From the IMG/VR virus record IMGVR_UViG_3300042507_005574: DNA of 64,000 nucleotides. One strand, written 5' to 3'. Below are positions 6,356 to 55,746 of the stretch, piece by piece. This DNA is from a virus. Made by a program: the position numbers and the translations under genes. Numbering within the stretch: position 1 is the stretch's first letter; every line of letters begins with the position of its first letter. The notes below the pieces were generated by a model. The model made no database searches and was not told the DNA's origin. It saw nothing but the letters and a program-made list of their open reading frames with translations.

Positions 6356-6384
6356 TTGCTTTTTGTGTGTTAATGTGGTATAAT
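6356..6384 (+). promoter_or_regulatory. Sigma70-like promoter of gp41
   Basis: TTGCTT-17nt-TATAAT with extended -10 TG. It overlaps the ORF-track start 6383, so the real start is probably ATG 6395. Confidence 0.6.
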
Positions 6385-6394
6385 GATGGAATCC

Positions 6395-7807
6395 ATGACA
6401 GACAAAATCGAATTCGTTGTACTTCGTAACTTGTTGTACAATGAAGATTATACAAGAAGAGTTCTGCCCTTCCTAAAGAAGGAGTACTTCCATGACCCAT
6501 GTGAGAGAAGACTATTTGAATGTGTTGAAGAATTCATTCAGAAGTATTCCTCTTCTCCAACTACAGAAGCGTTGAATATCATTCTCTCCGAGCAAGATGG
6601 CGTTTCTCAGGGTGAATATGACAATTGCACAAAGATTCTTGATTCACTTAATCAATGCAAAGATACACAGAATGAAATCGACTGGCTGATCGACCAAACT
6701 GAAAAGTTTTGTAAAGATAAAGCAGTTTACAATGCATTAATGGATTCTATCCAACTACTTGATGAAAAGAAGTCGAAGGGAAAGTCAAGGAATGCAATTC
6801 CAGAAATTCTCACTAAAGCATTGAGCGTTTCATTTGATGCTAGTATTGGTCATGACTTCGTTGAGGATGCAGACAAAAGATTTGAATTCTATCATCGGGT
6901 AGAGCAAAAGACTCCTTTTGATTTGGACTATTTGAACAAAATTACAAATGGTGGAGTTCCAAACAAAACTCTAAATGTGATCCTTGCGGGTACAGGTGTA
7001 GGTAAGAGTCTGTTCATGTGTCATCATGCAGCGTACTGTTTGACCATGAGTAAGAATGTCCTGTACATTACATGCGAAATGGCGGAAGAAAGAATCGCAG
7101 AAAGAATTGATGCAAATCTAATGGATATTGCGGTCGATGATCTCAAGTCTCTTCCGAAAGACATTTACGACAAGAAATTATCAAAAATTTCATCGGGAAT
7201 GACCGGCAAATTAATTATCAAGGAATATCCAACAGCAACGGCGAGTGTTGACCATTTCCGTCATTTACTAGATGAACTTAGACTCAAGAAGAACTTCAAA
7301 CCCGATGTCGTTTTCATAGACTATCTTAATATTTGTGCCTCTAGTAGATTTAAAGCGGGTGCGAATGTTAACTCCTACACCTATATCAAGGCAATCGCTG
7401 AAGAACTAAGAGGACTTGCAGTTCAATTGGACTTCCCTATCTTCACCGCAACACAAACGAATAGATCGGGATTTTCAAATACTGATGTGGAACTAACTGA
7501 TACATCGGAGTCATTCGGTCTACCAGCAACAGCGGATTTGATGTTTGCTATTATTGCAACCGAGCAACTTGATGAGTCGGGACAAATCATGGTGAAGCAA
7601 CTAAAGAACAGATATAATGATCCAACTCTTCACCGAAGATTCATTTTAGGTATTGACAGATCTAAGATGAAACTGTATGATGTGCAAGAAGATGACCAAG
7701 TACTGTTTGAGCAAATGGGAAAGGGATCAGAATCTGTCGATGATGAGGAAGACATGAGTAAGTTCAAAATCAAGAAGCCCAGATCTTTGTCAGGTTGGGG
7801 AGAATAA
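6395..7807 (+). CDS. 41: T4-like replicative DNA helicase gp41 (DnaB family)
   Basis: Walker A LAGTGVGKS, YITCEMAEE, FIDYLNI, TATQTNRSG, SESFGLPATAD and QLKNRY motifs. Start moved from 6383 to 6395. Confidence 0.95.
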   Translation: MTDKIEFVVLRNLLYNEDYTRRVLPFLKKEYFHDPCERRLFECVEEFIQKYSSSPTTEALNIILSEQDGVSQGEYDNCTKILDSLNQCKDTQNEIDWLIDQTEKFCKDKAVYNALMDSIQLLDEKKSKGKSRNAIPEILTKALSVSFDASIGHDFVEDADKRFEFYHRVEQKTPFDLDYLNKITNGGVPNKTLNVILAGTGVGKSLFMCHHAAYCLTMSKNVLYITCEMAEERIAERIDANLMDIAVDDLKSLPKDIYDKKLSKISSGMTGKLIIKEYPTATASVDHFRHLLDELRLKKNFKPDVVFIDYLNICASSRFKAGANVNSYTYIKAIAEELRGLAVQLDFPIFTATQTNRSGFSNTDVELTDTSESFGLPATADLMFAIIATEQLDESGQIMVKQLKNRYNDPTLHRRFILGIDRSKMKLYDVQEDDQVLFEQMGKGSESVDDEEDMSKFKIKKPRSLSGWGE

Positions 7808-7808
7808 A

Positions 7809-8060
7809 ATGCCTTACAGAATTCACATTGACATTCCGATTGAATCTGTTAGCGTTGACGATGCTCAGATTGAAGCAAAGGACATTCTCGCAAAGTTAGG
7901 AATTCTGATTGCAGATAATCCTCAATTGATAGGATCTGACTTGGAAATCAACTACAGACTTGGACATGATGATGATCGACAGCGTTCGAACTATCTTGAC
8001 ATGGATAAAATGGGCCATTGCACCCACAGGAAAAACCGTGTCAAATTCGCAAATGGGTAA
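7809..8060 (+). CDS. Hypothetical protein
   Basis: 83-aa ORF tightly coupled to the gp41 stop, with RBS GGAG. Confidence 0.65.
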   Translation: MPYRIHIDIPIESVSVDDAQIEAKDILAKLGILIADNPQLIGSDLEINYRLGHDDDRQRSNYLDMDKMGHCTHRKNRVKFANG

Positions 8061-8307
8061 TGGAGAGTGTCCATCTTGCCCTAAATGTGGCTGTGCAACA
8101 ATTCGTTCACGGCAAGATCTTTCTTTCGAAATTGGTGGTGGAGAAATTAGAACAGAACCTTTAGTTAGTGCCACAATTGTCATGAATGTTCCGATCTTTC
8201 AATGTATAAATCCTAGTTGTAGGAACGGAATGTATGGAGAAGAAGCAGAAAAAATCATGGAGCCTATAAAGAAAGTATTGACAAAACACGCAGTAGTTAA
8301 AAGTTAA
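8053..8307 (+). CDS. YgiT/MqsA-type zinc-finger protein
   Basis: CPKCG...NVPIFQCINPSC. ATG 8053 overlaps the previous stop and is preferred over the ORF-track start 7960. Confidence 0.6.
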   Translation: MGNGECPSCPKCGCATIRSRQDLSFEIGGGEIRTEPLVSATIVMNVPIFQCINPSCRNGMYGEEAEKIMEPIKKVLTKHAVVKS

Positions 8308-8312
8308 AATTT

Positions 8313-8383
8313 GTGCCGTGGGAGGTCAGCATCTCAGGTCGGCTTATACCCGAGCAACACAAGGGCAGCACTTGTACGGCATA
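8313..8383 (+). tRNA. Atypical tRNA-Ile(UAU) or tRNA-like RNA
   Basis: Cloverleaf: acceptor GTGCCGT/ACGGCAT, D-stem GAGG/TCTC, anticodon stem TCGG/CCGA with loop CTTATAC (anticodon TAT, 8345-8347), T-stem ACAAG/CTTGT. The T-loop is non-canonical (GGCAGCA) and no CCA is encoded. Confidence 0.7.
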
Positions 8384-8427
8384 TTAAGATAGTTTATATC
8401 TCGCTTCAGGCGAACAGAAACAACAGA

Positions 8428-8434
8428 ATAAATA
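8428..8434 (+). promoter_or_regulatory. T4-type late promoter
   Basis: ATAAATA 26 nt upstream of ATG 8460. Confidence 0.55.
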
Positions 8435-8459
8435 ATTGACTAACCCAAAGGAATAGGGA

Positions 8460-9674
8460 ATGCTGTCATTTACACAATACAATCATGAGATAATCCAAGA
8501 GGAAACTGCTAGAAATAAACACTTGGATCATATCGAAGATTTGATGATCCTTTACGGACAAAAGGGATTAGATGACTCAATAGCATTCCTCAAGGATATA
8601 ATCGAAAGCCTAAAAACCGGAAATACTAGTTTGGGAGTTTCCACCAAATGGGATGGGAAGCCTGCAATCATTTGTGGCGAAAACCCTGATAATGGTAAAT
8701 TCTTCGTATCGACAAAGTCTGTTTTCGGTGCTAAAGAGCAAAAAGCATATCATACGGAGGCTGAACTTAAAAAATCTGGATTGCCTTCTGATTTGATTGA
8801 TAAGATGGCAGTGTGTTTGAAAATGCTTACTAAGGTTGGTATTGGCAAGAGAATTTTGCAAGGCGATTTGATGTTTACTGCCGATATGAAAAAGGCAGTA
8901 AATATCGATGGTAAGCCACATATAGGATTTCAGCCAAACACAATCATGTACGCTGTTCCAAAGAATAGTGATATTGGGTCGGCAATCTCTTCAGCAAAAT
9001 TAGGAATCGCATTTCATACTGAATATAAGGGAGACAGTCTGAAGTCTATTCAGGCAGTATCTTATAATTTCAATTCCAAGGTTTTAAAACAAACAAGTGA
9101 GGTTTGGGTAACAGATCCAAACATCTACGATCTCTCTCCTGCCCTTATGAAGGGCGGCGAATCAGAGATGGCAATCAGGATGCTCAAGGAATGCGAAGCC
9201 CTAGCATCTAAAGTGAGGCCGTTTATCAAGACTCTAATCGCACAGAAAGAGATAGCAGAAACTTATTTACTGCCTTATGTCAATAGTACAATCAATGGCG
9301 GAATGAGCAATTTCAATGCATCCAGTCTCAAACTAAACATCAAAGGTAAGTTTGAAAAGGACATAAATAAACTAAAAACCGACAAAGCCAAGCAAGCAAA
9401 AACTGAATTAATGCAGAAGCAATTAGATTTCGTTGATGCGTATTCAAAGCAGATCGATCAAATGTTTGAACTTCACAATAAAATTGCCAACATCAAAGAA
9501 ATTCTTTTGCGTAAACTGTATGCCATTTCAACCCTAGGTCATTTCTTCATGGATGAGAATGGAATTCGCCCAACAAATCCTGAAGGTATTGTAATCTATC
9601 GATCAGGATCGGTGATTAAACTAGTTAATCGTTTAGAATTTAGTAAACAAAACCGAATGGTGAATCAGAGGTAA
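8460..9674 (+). CDS. Conserved T4-like phage protein (DUF6267-like) with ligase/nucleotidyltransferase motifs; probable head-internal protein
   Basis: STKWDGKPA (KxDG, motif I), LQGDLMF (III), PEGIVI (IV), IKLVNRLEF (V). The N-terminus MLSFTQY...IQEE resembles a capsid-targeting sequence. Confidence 0.6.
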   Translation: MLSFTQYNHEIIQEETARNKHLDHIEDLMILYGQKGLDDSIAFLKDIIESLKTGNTSLGVSTKWDGKPAIICGENPDNGKFFVSTKSVFGAKEQKAYHTEAELKKSGLPSDLIDKMAVCLKMLTKVGIGKRILQGDLMFTADMKKAVNIDGKPHIGFQPNTIMYAVPKNSDIGSAISSAKLGIAFHTEYKGDSLKSIQAVSYNFNSKVLKQTSEVWVTDPNIYDLSPALMKGGESEMAIRMLKECEALASKVRPFIKTLIAQKEIAETYLLPYVNSTINGGMSNFNASSLKLNIKGKFEKDINKLKTDKAKQAKTELMQKQLDFVDAYSKQIDQMFELHNKIANIKEILLRKLYAISTLGHFFMDENGIRPTNPEGIVIYRSGSVIKLVNRLEFSKQNRMVNQR

Positions 9675-22142: not shown

Positions 22143-22847
22143 ATGATTCCAAATATGATTCCTGTTCTAGGGGCAGGATTTGTTCAATATGTTGATCACA
22201 TGGGAAGCGACTTGACGGTCGTAAATGCTGCCCGAGTCTCTTTCAACAAAGAAAGTGAATGGGAACATCCAGATAGCCATGTCCCTGCCAATATTCTTTC
22301 GGAAAAAGATAAGAAGTTAATCTATTATCTTGCAAAGCATAATCACTGGACTCCATTCGCACATCCACAGATTACTTTGCGAATCAAGGCTCCAATTTCA
22401 ATTCGCACACAACTATTTAAACACAAGCAGGGATTCGTAGAAAACGAAGTATCTCGCCGCTATGTTTCGGATTCACCGGAATTTTATTTGCCCAAATGGA
22501 GATCTAAGCCATCTAATGGTGCAAAACAAGGTAGTGAGGATTTCATCGATGATCAGCAGCGTATTGAACACTTTAACGATCTTTATAGCCAAGTTATTTC
22601 GAAGGCTCATGGATACTATGAATTCTTGATTGAACAAGGTGTGGCCCCTGAACAAGCGAGGTTTATTCTTCCTCAGGGAGCATATACGGAATGGTGGTGG
22701 ACTGGAAGTCTTGCAGCATATGCTAGAGTATATTCTTTAAGATCGGATCCCCATGCTCAATGGGAAGTTAGATCTTATGCCCAAGCCATTTCCAATATTA
22801 TTAGTTCGATATATCCTGAGTCTTGGAACGCTCTAACTTGTCAATAA
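22143..22847 (+). CDS. thyX: Flavin-dependent thymidylate synthase
   Basis: VNAARVSF, HWTPF, QLFKH...NEVSRRY, EQARFILP and HAQWEVR motifs. Confidence 0.95.
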   Translation: MIPNMIPVLGAGFVQYVDHMGSDLTVVNAARVSFNKESEWEHPDSHVPANILSEKDKKLIYYLAKHNHWTPFAHPQITLRIKAPISIRTQLFKHKQGFVENEVSRRYVSDSPEFYLPKWRSKPSNGAKQGSEDFIDDQQRIEHFNDLYSQVISKAHGYYEFLIEQGVAPEQARFILPQGAYTEWWWTGSLAAYARVYSLRSDPHAQWEVRSYAQAISNIISSIYPESWNALTCQ

Positions 22848-43359: not shown

Positions 43360-45321
43360 ATGTCTGACGAGATTCGACTGCCGACCGAGTACCAGCAATT
43401 TATTCATTTATCACGCTATTCAAGATGGCTTGAAAATAAGGGACGAAGAGAAACTTGGGAAGAGACAGTCAATCGCTATTTCAACTTCTTCGATAAGCAC
43501 CTTGCAATTTTTACTAAAGGAAAGTTGTCGAAGGCAGAGCGTGAAGAACTTCGTCAGGCAGTTCTTAACCTTGAGGTGCTTCCTTCAATGCGATGTCTCA
43601 TGACAGCAGGTGAAGCCCTTGAACGAGACAACATTGCTGGATACAACTGTGCCTATGTTCACATCAATCGGGTTCGTGCATTCGATGAGATTCTCTATGT
43701 TCTCATGTGTGGTACGGGGGTTGGATTCTCTGTCGAGCGTCAGTTTGTTGAGAAGTTACCCACCATTGCCGAAGAGTTCAGCGATAGCGATACCCTCATC
43801 AATGTTGCCGATTCAAAGCAGGGTTGGGCAAAGGCTTTCCGTGAACTGATCAGTCTTCTCATCGTAGGTCAGATCCCCAAGTGGGATGTGTCAAAGGTTC
43901 GTCCTGCGGGTGCTCGACTGAAGACATTCGGTGGCAGAGCATCTGGTCCTCGTCCACTTGAAGATCTATTCAAGTTCACCGTGGAGACTTTCCGAAAGTC
44001 TGCGGGTCGCAAGTTGACTTCAATCGAATGTCATGACATTGTTTGCAAGATCGCAGAGATCGTAGTTGTCGGGGGCGTTCGTCGCTCGGCACTCATTTCA
44101 CTTTCAGAACTTGGCGATGAGCGAATGCGTAATGCCAAGAGCGGTGCTTGGTGGGAGGCAAATCCGCAACGGGCACTCGCAAACAATAGCGTTGCATACA
44201 AGGAAAAGCCTGAAATCGGAACTTTCATGCAGGAGTGGCTGTCTCTCTACAACAGCAAGAGTGGTGAGCGTGGTATCTTCAATAGAGCCGCAGCACAAAA
44301 GACTGTTTCAAAGTTAGGTGATCGTCGTGATCCTAACCATGAATTTGGAACGAATCCCTGCTCTGAAATCATTCTTCGTGATCGTGAGTTCTGTAATCTT
44401 ACGGAGATCATCATTCGTCCAACAGACACCGTAGAAGATCTTCTGAGAAAGGCTCGTATTGCTGCCATTCTAGGTACGATGCAAGCATCACTCACTAATT
44501 TCCAATATATTTCTTCTGAGTGGTCGAAGAATTGTAAGGAAGAAGCACTTCTTGGCGTTTCCATGACTGGTCAGTTGGACAACAAGATGATGCTTTCGAT
44601 GTCTGATAATAGTGATCTTCTTTTGCCGTCTTCACTACCAAATATTCTTGAGACCGTGAAGAACAAAACCATTGAAGTGAATGCAGAATGGGCAAAGAGA
44701 CTTGGTATCAATCCCGCTGCTGCAATTACATGTGTCAAGCCTTCGGGAACTGTTTCTCAGTTGACTGATGCTGCTTCAGGAATGCACCCAAGACACAGTC
44801 AATACTACATTCGCACGGTTCGTGCAGACATCAAAGATCCCCTCTGTCAGATGATGCAGGAGGCAGGATTCCCTTCTGAGCCTTGCGTAATGCGTCCCGA
44901 CCACACTAGAGTATTTTCATTCCCCATGAAGTCTCCTGATGGGTGTTTGACACGCAATGATCTAACTGCAATTGAACATCTGAATCTTTGGTTGACCTAT
45001 CAGAGACATTGGTGTGAACATAAGCCGTCTATTACCATTACCGTTCGTGAACACGAATGGATGGATGTTGGTGCTTGGGTGTATGAACACTTTGATGAGG
45101 TGTCTGGAATTTCCTTCCTGCCCCACAGCGACCACTCATACAAGCAGGCTCCGTATCAAGATTGCACAAAGGAAGAATATGAAACCCTTTTGGCTCAAAT
45201 GCCAAAGAATGTAAACTGGTCTGATCTCTCCAAGTATGAGAAGGAAGATAGAACGGCTGGATCTCAAACCTATGCTTGTTCAGGAGATAAATGTGAATTG
45301 GTGGATTTGACATCCTCATAA
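43360..45321 (+). CDS. nrdJ: Class II (adenosylcobalamin-dependent) ribonucleotide reductase, monomeric RTPR type
   Basis: RRETWEETV, PSMR, YNCA, GTGVGFS, GGVRRSALI, GTNPCSEI, TCVKPSGTVS, WCEHKPSIT, and C-terminal CSGDKC. Confidence 0.93.
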   Translation: MSDEIRLPTEYQQFIHLSRYSRWLENKGRRETWEETVNRYFNFFDKHLAIFTKGKLSKAEREELRQAVLNLEVLPSMRCLMTAGEALERDNIAGYNCAYVHINRVRAFDEILYVLMCGTGVGFSVERQFVEKLPTIAEEFSDSDTLINVADSKQGWAKAFRELISLLIVGQIPKWDVSKVRPAGARLKTFGGRASGPRPLEDLFKFTVETFRKSAGRKLTSIECHDIVCKIAEIVVVGGVRRSALISLSELGDERMRNAKSGAWWEANPQRALANNSVAYKEKPEIGTFMQEWLSLYNSKSGERGIFNRAAAQKTVSKLGDRRDPNHEFGTNPCSEIILRDREFCNLTEIIIRPTDTVEDLLRKARIAAILGTMQASLTNFQYISSEWSKNCKEEALLGVSMTGQLDNKMMLSMSDNSDLLLPSSLPNILETVKNKTIEVNAEWAKRLGINPAAAITCVKPSGTVSQLTDAASGMHPRHSQYYIRTVRADIKDPLCQMMQEAGFPSEPCVMRPDHTRVFSFPMKSPDGCLTRNDLTAIEHLNLWLTYQRHWCEHKPSITITVREHEWMDVGAWVYEHFDEVSGISFLPHSDHSYKQAPYQDCTKEEYETLLAQMPKNVNWSDLSKYEKEDRTAGSQTYACSGDKCELVDLTSS

Positions 45322-54039: not shown

Positions 54040-55746
54040 TTACGACATCTTACTGTAATTGCCCTTCTTGGATAGTTGAACATGTCGCTCAAACTTATCT
54101 TGAAGAACTTCCTTGGATTTGTGGCTGATGACAAAAACATTTACATTGTGACCACGCATGCCATTCATGATCTCCAAGAACGCTTCTGTTGATGTATCGT
54201 CTAGCGATCCATCTAAAACCTCATCTAGAATCAGTAAGTTAGTGGAGAGTGAGTTCTTGATCTCTGCCATGGCTCTCCAAGCAAACAGAAGTGCCAGATC
54301 GATCTTCCGCTTCTCACCTTCGCTGAAAGAAGCATATGTGAATACATCACGGTGTCGAGACTTGATGGTTTCGTTGAATTCATCGTCAAGATTAAAGTTG
54401 ACGAAGAAATTCATCATACTCAAATACTTGTTGATCGTTCTATTGATGACTGGAATATAATGCTTGATAATTTTTTTCTTGATTCCACCATCTTTCAGCA
54501 GGATAGACGCAAGGCCCAAGTAATGATTGTCCTCTACAAGTTCTCTCTTTGAATCAAGTACTTCTGATTCTTCACTTTCAAGACGAGACAGTTCTTTTTC
54601 GTCTTGAATCAACTTTGTGGTGTTCCCCCCACGCCCACGAACTTTACCAATATAATCATTAAGAGAATCGATATCAGATGTTTTCTTATGGATTAATGAC
54701 TGAAGTGCAGAAATCTCCAACAGAACATCTGTAATTGTGTTCAGTCTATCATCGACCTCTTTATACTTGATCATCAATTCCGAAAGACCATCATTTAAAT
54801 CTTGAGACTTCTTACCCTTTGATTGTACAGTTGTCTTCTTAAACTCTTCATCGATTGACTGTGAGCATGTCGGACACTTGTTATTACTTTCATAGAATTG
54901 AATCTCTTTCTTGAGAGAAGAGATCTTCTTTTCAATCGTACCTTTCAAAACAATGCATTCCTCACGCTTCTTGGAGATTAAATCTTTATCCGCTACACTT
55001 TCGAACATAGTTTCGATGGTTTTAGTCATCGATTCGATTTCTTTTCGGTGTTTCTCAATCTCTACATTTGTACGATCAATTTCCTGTGTTTCCCACTCTT
55101 TATCTGATAGAGTTCTTTTTCTTTCGTCTTCGATGATCTTTCTTTGGTTCTTGACCCTCTCCTTAGCAATAGCCAACTGTGTGTCGATCTGCACCGACTC
55201 TTCCTTGATCTGGCTGGTTCTTTCCTTGAGAAGGGTATTCATCACGGAGAACACTCCGATGTCTAGAATCGACTCTACGACCGCTCTACGCTCTGCTGCG
55301 GGTAATCGCATGAATGGGATATAATTGGCAGAACCTAGTATAACTACCTGACAAAAAGACTTATAAGACATGTGGAGAATCTGTTCCTCTAGAATCTTTT
55401 GTCCATCCCGTGCTTTTGCTTCTTGATCTAGGAGTTTATCGTCTTTCCAAATCTCAAAGATCTTGGGTGACTGCCCACGAACGATTTTGTATTCGTTCTT
55501 TTCATCCGAGAACTCCAATTCAACAACACAATCTTTTTCATTGACTGAGTTAGTTAACTGTGGTAAGTTGATATTTCTGTATGGCTTATTGAAAAGAGCA
55601 AATGTCAAAGCGTCGAGCAAAGTACTCTTACCTGAACCATTCTCACCGCTGATTAGGGTTGTTGATGCATCTGTTAGAGATAGTTCTGTGAAATTATTTC
55701 CTGTGCTTAGAAAGTTCTTCCACCGAATTTTCTTGAAAGTAATCAT
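54040..55746 (-). CDS. 46: Recombination endonuclease ATPase subunit gp46 (SbcC/Rad50-like)
   Basis: WKNFLSTGN, GENGSGKST, Zn hook CPTC, FSEGEK and LILDEVLD. Confidence 0.95.
   Translation of the reverse strand: MITFKKIRWKNFLSTGNNFTELSLTDASTTLISGENGSGKSTLLDALTFALFNKPYRNINLPQLTNSVNEKDCVVELEFSDEKNEYKIVRGQSPKIFEIWKDDKLLDQEAKARDGQKILEEQILHMSYKSFCQVVILGSANYIPFMRLPAAERRAVVESILDIGVFSVMNTLLKERTSQIKEESVQIDTQLAIAKERVKNQRKIIEDERKRTLSDKEWETQEIDRTNVEIEKHRKEIESMTKTIETMFESVADKDLISKKREECIVLKGTIEKKISSLKKEIQFYESNNKCPTCSQSIDEEFKKTTVQSKGKKSQDLNDGLSELMIKYKEVDDRLNTITDVLLEISALQSLIHKKTSDIDSLNDYIGKVRGRGGNTTKLIQDEKELSRLESEESEVLDSKRELVEDNHYLGLASILLKDGGIKKKIIKHYIPVINRTINKYLSMMNFFVNFNLDDEFNETIKSRHRDVFTYASFSEGEKRKIDLALLFAWRAMAEIKNSLSTNLLILDEVLDGSLDDTSTEAFLEIMNGMRGHNVNVFVISHKSKEVLQDKFERHVQLSKKGNYSKMS

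Follow-up and report, generated by a model that had tools for sequence, protein, structure and literature searches.

Within the 64,000-nt stretch of viral DNA analysed here (hereafter, the window), a 71-nt element at positions 8313-8383 of the plus strand, counted with its discriminator A73, pairs like a tRNA and displays the anticodon UAU, which would read the isoleucine codon AUA. Its D- and T-loops lack the sequences from which tRNAs build their elbow. The G18G19/T-psi-C elbow ranks with the best-conserved features of tRNAs, and RNase P, the CCA-adding enzyme, the ribosome and enzymes that modify the T-loop all make use of its canonical form. The locus raises the question of whether the element is a working tRNA, an RNA with another role, a decaying gene, a DNA-level element or a chance cloverleaf.

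Anatomy of the tRNA-like element

The element occupies a 152-nt gap. Upstream lies a small zinc-ribbon ORF (ending at 8307), which comes after a DnaB/gp41-type helicase gene (6383-7807), and downstream lies a gene for a DUF6267 protein (8460-9674). Its parts, as read from the sequence and compared with the homologues described below, are as follows.

8312-8386, plus strand: conserved block comprising the whole tRNA-like gene, 1 nt on its 5' side and 3 nt on its 3' side; 100% identical in the related contigs L008, L019 and L021
8313-8383, plus strand: putative non-canonical tRNA-Ile(UAU) gene, from direct reading and homologue comparison
8313-8319, plus strand: 5' strand of the acceptor stem, pairing with 8376-8382; 100% of alignment cells paired
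8322-8335, plus strand: D-arm GAGG(U)/(A)UCUC with loop CAGC (8327-8330), without G18G19; the fifth pair covaries
8337-8355, plus strand: anticodon arm with a 6-bp stem and the 7-nt loop CUUAUAC; 4/6 pairs changed on both sides
8345-8347, plus strand: anticodon TAT (UAU), predicted to read AUA; invariant in 16/16 variants
8359-8375, plus strand: T-arm with a 5-bp stem and the 7-nt loop GGCAGCA (8364-8370); loop pattern in 16/16 variants, compensatory changes in the stem
8376-8382, plus strand: the acceptor stem's 3' strand; pairing kept across variants

The acceptor stem (8313-8319/8376-8382) has 7 bp, including G1.U72, and is separated from the D-stem by two nucleotides, G8 and G9 (8320-8321). 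The D-stem GAGG/TCTC closes the 6-nt loop TCAGCA, in which U14 and A19 pair to give a 5-bp stem with the loop CAGC. After A26 (8336) come an anticodon stem of 6 bp with one G.G mismatch and the loop CTTATAC, which has both U33 and A37. The variable loop is AAC, the T-stem is ACAAG/CTTGT, and the T-loop GGCAGCA stands in place of TTCGAAT. The discriminator A at 8383 is followed by TTA, so that no CCA is encoded. A preliminary description made from the letters alone had listed the paired stems, the G.G mismatch, the anticodon loop, G8, the two altered loops and the missing CCA, and every one of these statements was correct on direct reading.

The element has the full cloverleaf, that is, a 7-bp acceptor stem on which a 5-bp T-stem stacks, a D-arm and an anticodon arm, together with an anticodon loop of 7 nt that has U33 and a purine at 37 and reads Y-U-UAU-A-(C/A) across variants. 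The elbow, formed elsewhere by G18G19 with T54-psi55-C56-R57-A58, is lacking: only one D-loop G, C56 and R57 are left. The U8-A14 tertiary pair is likewise absent, its places being taken by G8 and U14, the same two bases that are found in canonical relatives detected by ARAGORN. Under the rules of E. coli, the identity of tRNA-Ile lies in the anticodon, A37, A38, A73, C4-G69, U12-A23 and C29-G41. The element has A35, U36, A37, A73, C4-G69 and C29-G41; its 12-23 pair is G-C, and its position 38 is C, which is A in several variants. The IleRS of the host may follow other rules. A reading on the reverse strand was rejected, as it would break the G-U pairs and run opposite to the neighbouring genes and tRNAs.

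Detection, folding and the rate of chance matches

ARAGORN in bacterial mode reported no tRNA anywhere in the 64-kb window, nor did it at thresholds of 90, 80 or 70%; its metazoan-mitochondrial mode alone calls the element, as (Ile|Met)(tat). Rfam gave no match at the gathering score and no tRNA match at E<=10 in 8100-8600, and the element as it occurs in records G001-G005 had no RF00005 match at E<=0.01. Because its elbow loops have been replaced by new sequences, standard tRNA finders miss the element, as the preliminary description had suspected they could. BLASTN searches with the region and with the intergenic stretch against 50,697 GenBank phage records returned no match.

The minimum-free-energy (MFE) fold of the single sequence is a rod, not the cloverleaf (-24.7 vs -21.5 kcal/mol, z = -1.8), and folding z-scores are weak on both strands. 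Taken by itself, a sequence whose MFE fold is a different one offers weak evidence, and homologues are decisive. A purpose-written cloverleaf scan found a single match in the window, namely this element, and one match in total in ten shuffled windows; a chance rate of ~0.1 per window is not negligible across a large scan.

Descent from a canonical tRNA-Ile(UAU)

Related IMG/VR phage contigs were gathered through the neighbouring DUF6267 protein. In three of these (L008, L019 and L021) the block 8312-8386 is base-for-base identical to that of the window, the intergenic flanks are unalignable and the neighbouring protein is ~80% identical (about 87% over the part covered in L021). The boundaries of the identical block match those of the cloverleaf. 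A search of relatives with a covariance model, which the preliminary description had proposed as a check, was carried out with a model built from the cloverleaf: it found a single copy in the window and slightly differing homologues in L053 and L033, whose neighbouring protein is ~60% identical. It also weakly matched L052, which has a canonical tRNA with a UUCGAAU T-loop.

When ARAGORN was applied to the relatives, a canonical tRNA-Ile(tat) was called in 31/39 loci, in nearly all of them no more than about 150 nt upstream of the DUF6267 gene, L040 being an exception. The relatives with the canonical tRNA are T4-like freshwater phages. Because a canonical tRNA-Ile(tat) lies at the same place in these relatives, the element is the positional counterpart of a genuine tRNA-Ile(UAU) gene; in the relatives L049-L051 the gene has been lost altogether.

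Pattern scans of viral and metagenome collections revealed a large family of canonical phage tRNA-Ile(UAU) genes that have in common with the element the acceptor strand GCGCCGT, G8-G9, the D-stem GAGG/TCTC, A26 and the extra anticodon-stem pair. Canonical members have the D-loops UCUUGGUUA and the T-loops UUCGAAU or UUCGAUU, and the subtype with which the element has its acceptor, G8-G9, D-stem and A26 in common is GCGCCGT/GCGCCAC. Sequence comparison indicates that this subtype gave rise to the non-canonical form. Left unchanged are the 7/5 geometry of acceptor and T-stem, the acceptor stem itself, G8-G9, the D-stem, A26, A73 and the anticodon loop. The D-loop has gone from 9-10 nt containing G18G19 to the 4-nt loop CAGC on a 5-bp stem, keeping U14, C15, one G and A21, losing three or four residues and changing G18 to A; in the T-loop the only survivors are C56 and a purine at 57. 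G8 is not specific to the rewrite, as it also occurs in the canonical relatives. The likeness to tRNA-Ile(UAU) claimed in the preliminary description is thus borne out by both synteny and sequence homology with canonical tRNA-Ile(TAT) genes.

Further phage tRNA(UAU) genes with the same D-stem (L104, L180, L219, L120 and L159) display differing odd elbows: T-loops AUCAAUA or AUCAACA with 6-nt D-loops, the T-loop UGCAAUU, or a 4-bp T-stem. The UAU isoacceptor seems prone to elbow variation, and these genes hint at an unusual pressure on phage tRNA-Ile(UAU). Separately, in L063 (3826-3916), L064 and L068 the same position holds a tRNA of 91 nt whose anticodon is UAU and whose variable arm is long, and metagenomic sequences (L176, L177, L191, L202, L216 and others) combine a UAU anticodon and a canonical T-loop with an apparent long variable arm. 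A class-II-like body with an isoleucine anticodon is unusual.

Selection on the non-canonical form

The non-canonical class comprises 16 distinct sequences, which were aligned with MAFFT. Standard pairs occupy 98% of cells across the 16 variants, all four stems being kept by compensatory changes, and both sides have changed in 7-8 of the 22-23 pairs. As a control, the structure was slid by 1-3 columns, after which 31-46% of cells were paired and at most one pair had changed on both sides. RNAalifold recovers the cloverleaf without being given the structure and adds the fifth D-stem pair, U-A in 14 sequences and A-U in 2; as this pair covaries, the D-arm is a 5-bp stem with a 4-nt loop (CAGC, CAGU or AAGC). 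Acceptor pair 2:71 alternates between C-G and U-A, two T-stem pairs have compensatory changes, and the position of the G.G mismatch in the window is G-C or A-U in other variants. The T-loop reads GGC(A/G)G(C/U)A in 16/16 sequences, and alignment columns T32-A36 are invariant. Covariation of the D-loop with the T-loop was sought, and only single-sided changes were seen (L152, L175 and L113), so no tertiary pair can be claimed.

These data indicate that the new form is under purifying selection. The preliminary description had argued that intact stems speak against simple decay and had made its reading depend on the existence of covarying homologues; the 16 variants provide both the covarying stems and compensatory changes in all four of them. 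The phages that carry the variants have DUF6267 proteins as low as 34-62% identical to that of the window. In a tree of this protein the non-canonical type appears in at least three separate places, with the canonical carrier L052 nested among them. Whether old or passed from phage to phage, the non-canonical type is maintained; the tree fits a single origin with transfer or repeated replacement alike.

tRNA arrays and the missing isoleucine slot

Among the more distant phages the element is a member of tRNA arrays and shares the strand of the tRNAs beside it. The gap to tRNA-Tyr in L083 measures 4 nt and that to tRNA-Glu in L182 5 nt, and in L070, L073, L190 and L071/L074 the element stands between tRNA-Gly and tRNA-Gln. 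By descent and behaviour it groups with tRNAs, sharing both position and sequence with canonical tRNA-Ile(tat) and belonging to arrays. ARAGORN detected many canonical tRNAs and zero tRNA-Ile(tat) in 78 carrier loci (572 kb, redundant).

In record G001, whose neighbouring protein is ~97% identical to that of the window, 14 canonical tRNAs and a predicted tmRNA lie ~30 kb upstream. U34 is the first anticodon base in 11 of these tRNAs, which read codons ending in A, and isoleucine has no tRNA among the 14; the element would supply the sole A-ending-codon reader absent from this cluster. U8, GG in the D-loop and the T-loop GTTCRA are found in every one of the 14. None encodes CCA (0/14), so a tRNA gene without CCA is the rule in this phage, and the unusual elbow belongs to the Ile(UAU) gene alone.

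ATA codons in the window

ATA makes up 18 per 1000 codons of the window and 26% of its isoleucine codons. The preliminary description had remarked, by eye, that ATA is scarcer in nrdJ than in the AT-rich late genes, a remark that the counts bear out. Four genes of replication and nucleotide metabolism stand out by the number of ATA codons among their isoleucine codons:

43360-45321: nrdJ, 0/36
6383-7807: helicase (gp41-type), 1/32
54040-55746, minus strand: SMC/Rad50-like ATPase, 1/48
22143-22847: ThyX, 1/17

Together these genes have 3 ATA among 133 isoleucine codons, compared with about 28% in the rest of the window and 25-50% in many other window genes. Avoidance of ATA fits expression before a phage tRNA accumulates, which is only suggestive; in these four genes it may reflect either early expression or a different gene origin. 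Among relatives, ATA use tracks GC content and does not separate carriers of the canonical tRNA, carriers of the non-canonical form and phages without the tRNA. L072/L053 keep the element though nearby genes show 1.2 ATA per 1000 codons.

A probable AUA-decoding tRNA and its alternatives

We consider the element probably to be a working, AUA-reading phage tRNA-Ile(UAU) that descends from a canonical ancestor and has had its elbow restructured. On sequence grounds it would be classed as a structural variant of tRNA that falls outside the canonical family as RF00005 defines it. Support for decoding of AUA comes from context only, namely the tRNA arrays, the absence of another Ile(UAU) tRNA and companions that read A-ending codons. 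In such a scheme, the element would share a transcript with the early/middle helicase unit or, in other phages, with a tRNA array, and host RNase P and a 3' nuclease would trim it. A host enzyme would add CCA, likewise for the other CCA-less tRNAs of the phage, and host IleRS would charge the product, which would then decode the ATA codons that form 26% of the phage's isoleucine codons. Between the D-loop G and the T-loop C56 that have been kept, an elbow contact like G19-C56 could still arise. An RNA with a non-canonical elbow may be handled poorly by a bacterial system. Moreover, a tRNA with a UAU anticodon is charged inefficiently by E. coli IleRS and misreads AUG on E. coli ribosomes (PMC3575796), so that decoding by any phage tRNA-Ile(UAU) depends on the host.

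A structured RNA with a different role would account for the conservation and covariation equally well. A tRNA-derived RNA might act outside translation, as a sponge or decoy that occupies a tRNA-binding enzyme or a tRNA-targeting defence nuclease of the host, or as an RNase P/Z processing signal that ends the helicase transcript, and we regard this as unlikely. The anticodon loop is invariant even though the elbow motifs on which the normal handling of a tRNA depends have disappeared; phage tRNAs are known to counter tRNA-cleaving defences (PMC10264068, PMC11555353, PMC11464382), and the element persists where nearby genes hardly use ATA (L072/L053). Against this, the element stands in for the canonical tRNA-Ile(UAU) and does not occur beside it (0 co-occurrences in 572 kb), so a phage that took on a pure decoy would forfeit its AUA decoder. 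An acceptor stem and a discriminator are needless in bait for an anticodon nuclease, yet both are conserved, with compensatory change, and the element sits in tRNA arrays as an ordinary member.

That the gene is instead a decaying pseudogene of the ancestral tRNA-Ile(UAU) is very improbable. The failure of every bacterial tRNA detector and the lack of the gene in some relatives (L049-L051) would suit decay, but lineages with unalignable flanks differ by zero substitutions in 75 nt, and 16 variants, from phages with DUF6267 proteins only 34-62% identical, combine near-invariant new loops with compensatory changes in all four stems; these changes also speak against a very recent transfer of one dead copy. 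We give almost no credence to a chance cloverleaf or to an element acting at the DNA level, be it an origin, a small mobile element bounded by terminal inverted repeats or the core of an attachment site that matches a host RNA gene. The 7-bp acceptor stem does resemble a terminal inverted repeat and the boundaries of the block are sharp. Against this stand one copy per genome without integrase context, G-U pairs that form on the plus strand only, a strand that is always that of neighbouring tRNAs, and homology to canonical tRNA genes; for a chance cloverleaf, the expectation is about 0.1 per window.

If the element is a working tRNA, its elbow may have been rewritten by adaptation, not by drift. 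We hold this only tentatively, and think it somewhat doubtful: of 15 lineage tRNAs (the element and the 14 of the near-identical record G001), Ile(UAU) alone would have exchanged its elbow for the conserved CAGC and GGCAGCA and still work with bacterial translation. The rewrite might provide escape from recognition of the canonical elbow by a host factor (a modification enzyme or a tRNA-cleaving defence nuclease, for instance), or it might adjust decoding where U34 is unmodified or modified in another way and so avoid misreading of AUG. That pressure from charging and AUG misreading, or from defence, caused the remodelling of this isoacceptor alone is speculation.

Comparison with known tRNAs

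T4 also encodes a tRNA-Ile that reads AUA. The canonical phage tRNA-Ile(UAU) genes, such as those of the GCGCCGT type in L109, L139 and L052, lie at the same place as the element, likewise encode no CCA, and match it in acceptor stem, G8-G9, D-stem, A26, anticodon loop (C/U-U-UAU-A) and discriminator A. They differ in the D-loop (9-10 nt with UGG, against 4-6 nt without GG in the element) and in the T-loop (UUCGAAU/UUCGAUU, against GGCAGCA), and the element, unlike them, is recognised neither by ARAGORN nor by Rfam RF00005.

Exceptions to the G18G19/T-psi-C elbow are known in mitochondrial tRNAs, tRNAPyl and a few others (PMC7609411). The first two are active in translation with a 6-bp anticodon stem, a short D-loop and a short variable loop, without G18G19/T-psi-C (PMC7609411), and the element shares with tRNAPyl (Methanosarcina, Desulfitobacterium) and mammalian mitochondrial tRNAs the 6-bp anticodon stem, the short D-loop, a variable loop of 3-4 nt and the loss of G18G19 and T-psi-C (PMC7609411). 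D. hafniense tRNAPyl has G8, as does the element, and the mitochondrial likeness extends to the call by ARAGORN's mitochondrial mode. The element nevertheless carries UAU where tRNAPyl has CUA, and its acceptor and D stems are two nucleotides (G8 and G9) apart instead of one; it comes from phages, evolved independently out of a canonical tRNA-Ile and retains C56. It is analogous to tRNAPyl in structure and not a member of that group.

The extended D-stem and 4-nt D-loop recall tRNASec, which retains the G-C56 contact (PMC7609411), but the element has 7/5 rather than 8/5 or 9/4 geometry, no long variable arm, a non-canonical T-loop and another anticodon. Mycoplasma mobile tRNA-Ile2(UAU) has the same UAU anticodon, used there for AUA without lysidine; the adaptations reported in that case affect the ribosome and IleRS rather than the elbow of the tRNA, which is cellular, not phage-borne (PMC3575796). 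Phage tRNAs are known both as targets of and as antidotes to tRNA-cleaving defences (PMC10264068, PMC11555353, PMC11464382).

In full-text literature searches with incomplete journal coverage, no such phage tRNA was found described. Should the element function with bacterial RNase P, CCA-adding enzyme, IleRS, EF-Tu and ribosome, it would show how much of the elbow bacteria can spare, and, were the adaptive reading true, it would be a natural elongator tRNA of a bacterial system with a non-canonical elbow. Pairs of canonical and non-canonical genes at one locus offer a ready comparison for defence evasion, modification avoidance or discrimination against AUG. Since neither ARAGORN nor Rfam detects such genes, they may go unnoticed when tRNAs are counted or codon compensation is analysed in uncultured phages.

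Neighbouring genes and other features

The DUF6267 gene adjoins the tRNA-Ile gene, canonical or not, in many relatives. We considered a link between the protein and the non-canonical tRNA, which is unsupported because phages with the canonical tRNA carry the same neighbour. The protein (phrog_455) has no assigned PHROG function and no sequence relative in the PDB; it contains a KWDG motif reminiscent of ligase motif I. A scan of 7700-8600 for sigma-70 promoters and intrinsic terminators found nothing, and TAAATA, a T4-late-like motif noted by eye, lies between the element and the DUF6267 gene. In the spacer at 8398-8412, the window has a hairpin with a CGC/GCG core where L001 and other ~97% relatives have CUCCA/UGGAG; downstream of the element, L008, L019 and L021 have a GC-rich CGCAC-type repeat tract instead of the hairpin.

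ARAGORN also predicted tmRNA genes within phage tRNA clusters, at L243:3366-3758 (record G001), where the tag peptide ends in ...RRLALAA, and at L246:2035-2355. A 92-nt tRNA-Ser with the anticodon ACT, likewise called by ARAGORN in a phage tRNA cluster, occupies L243:4610-4701; A34 is unusual for serine.
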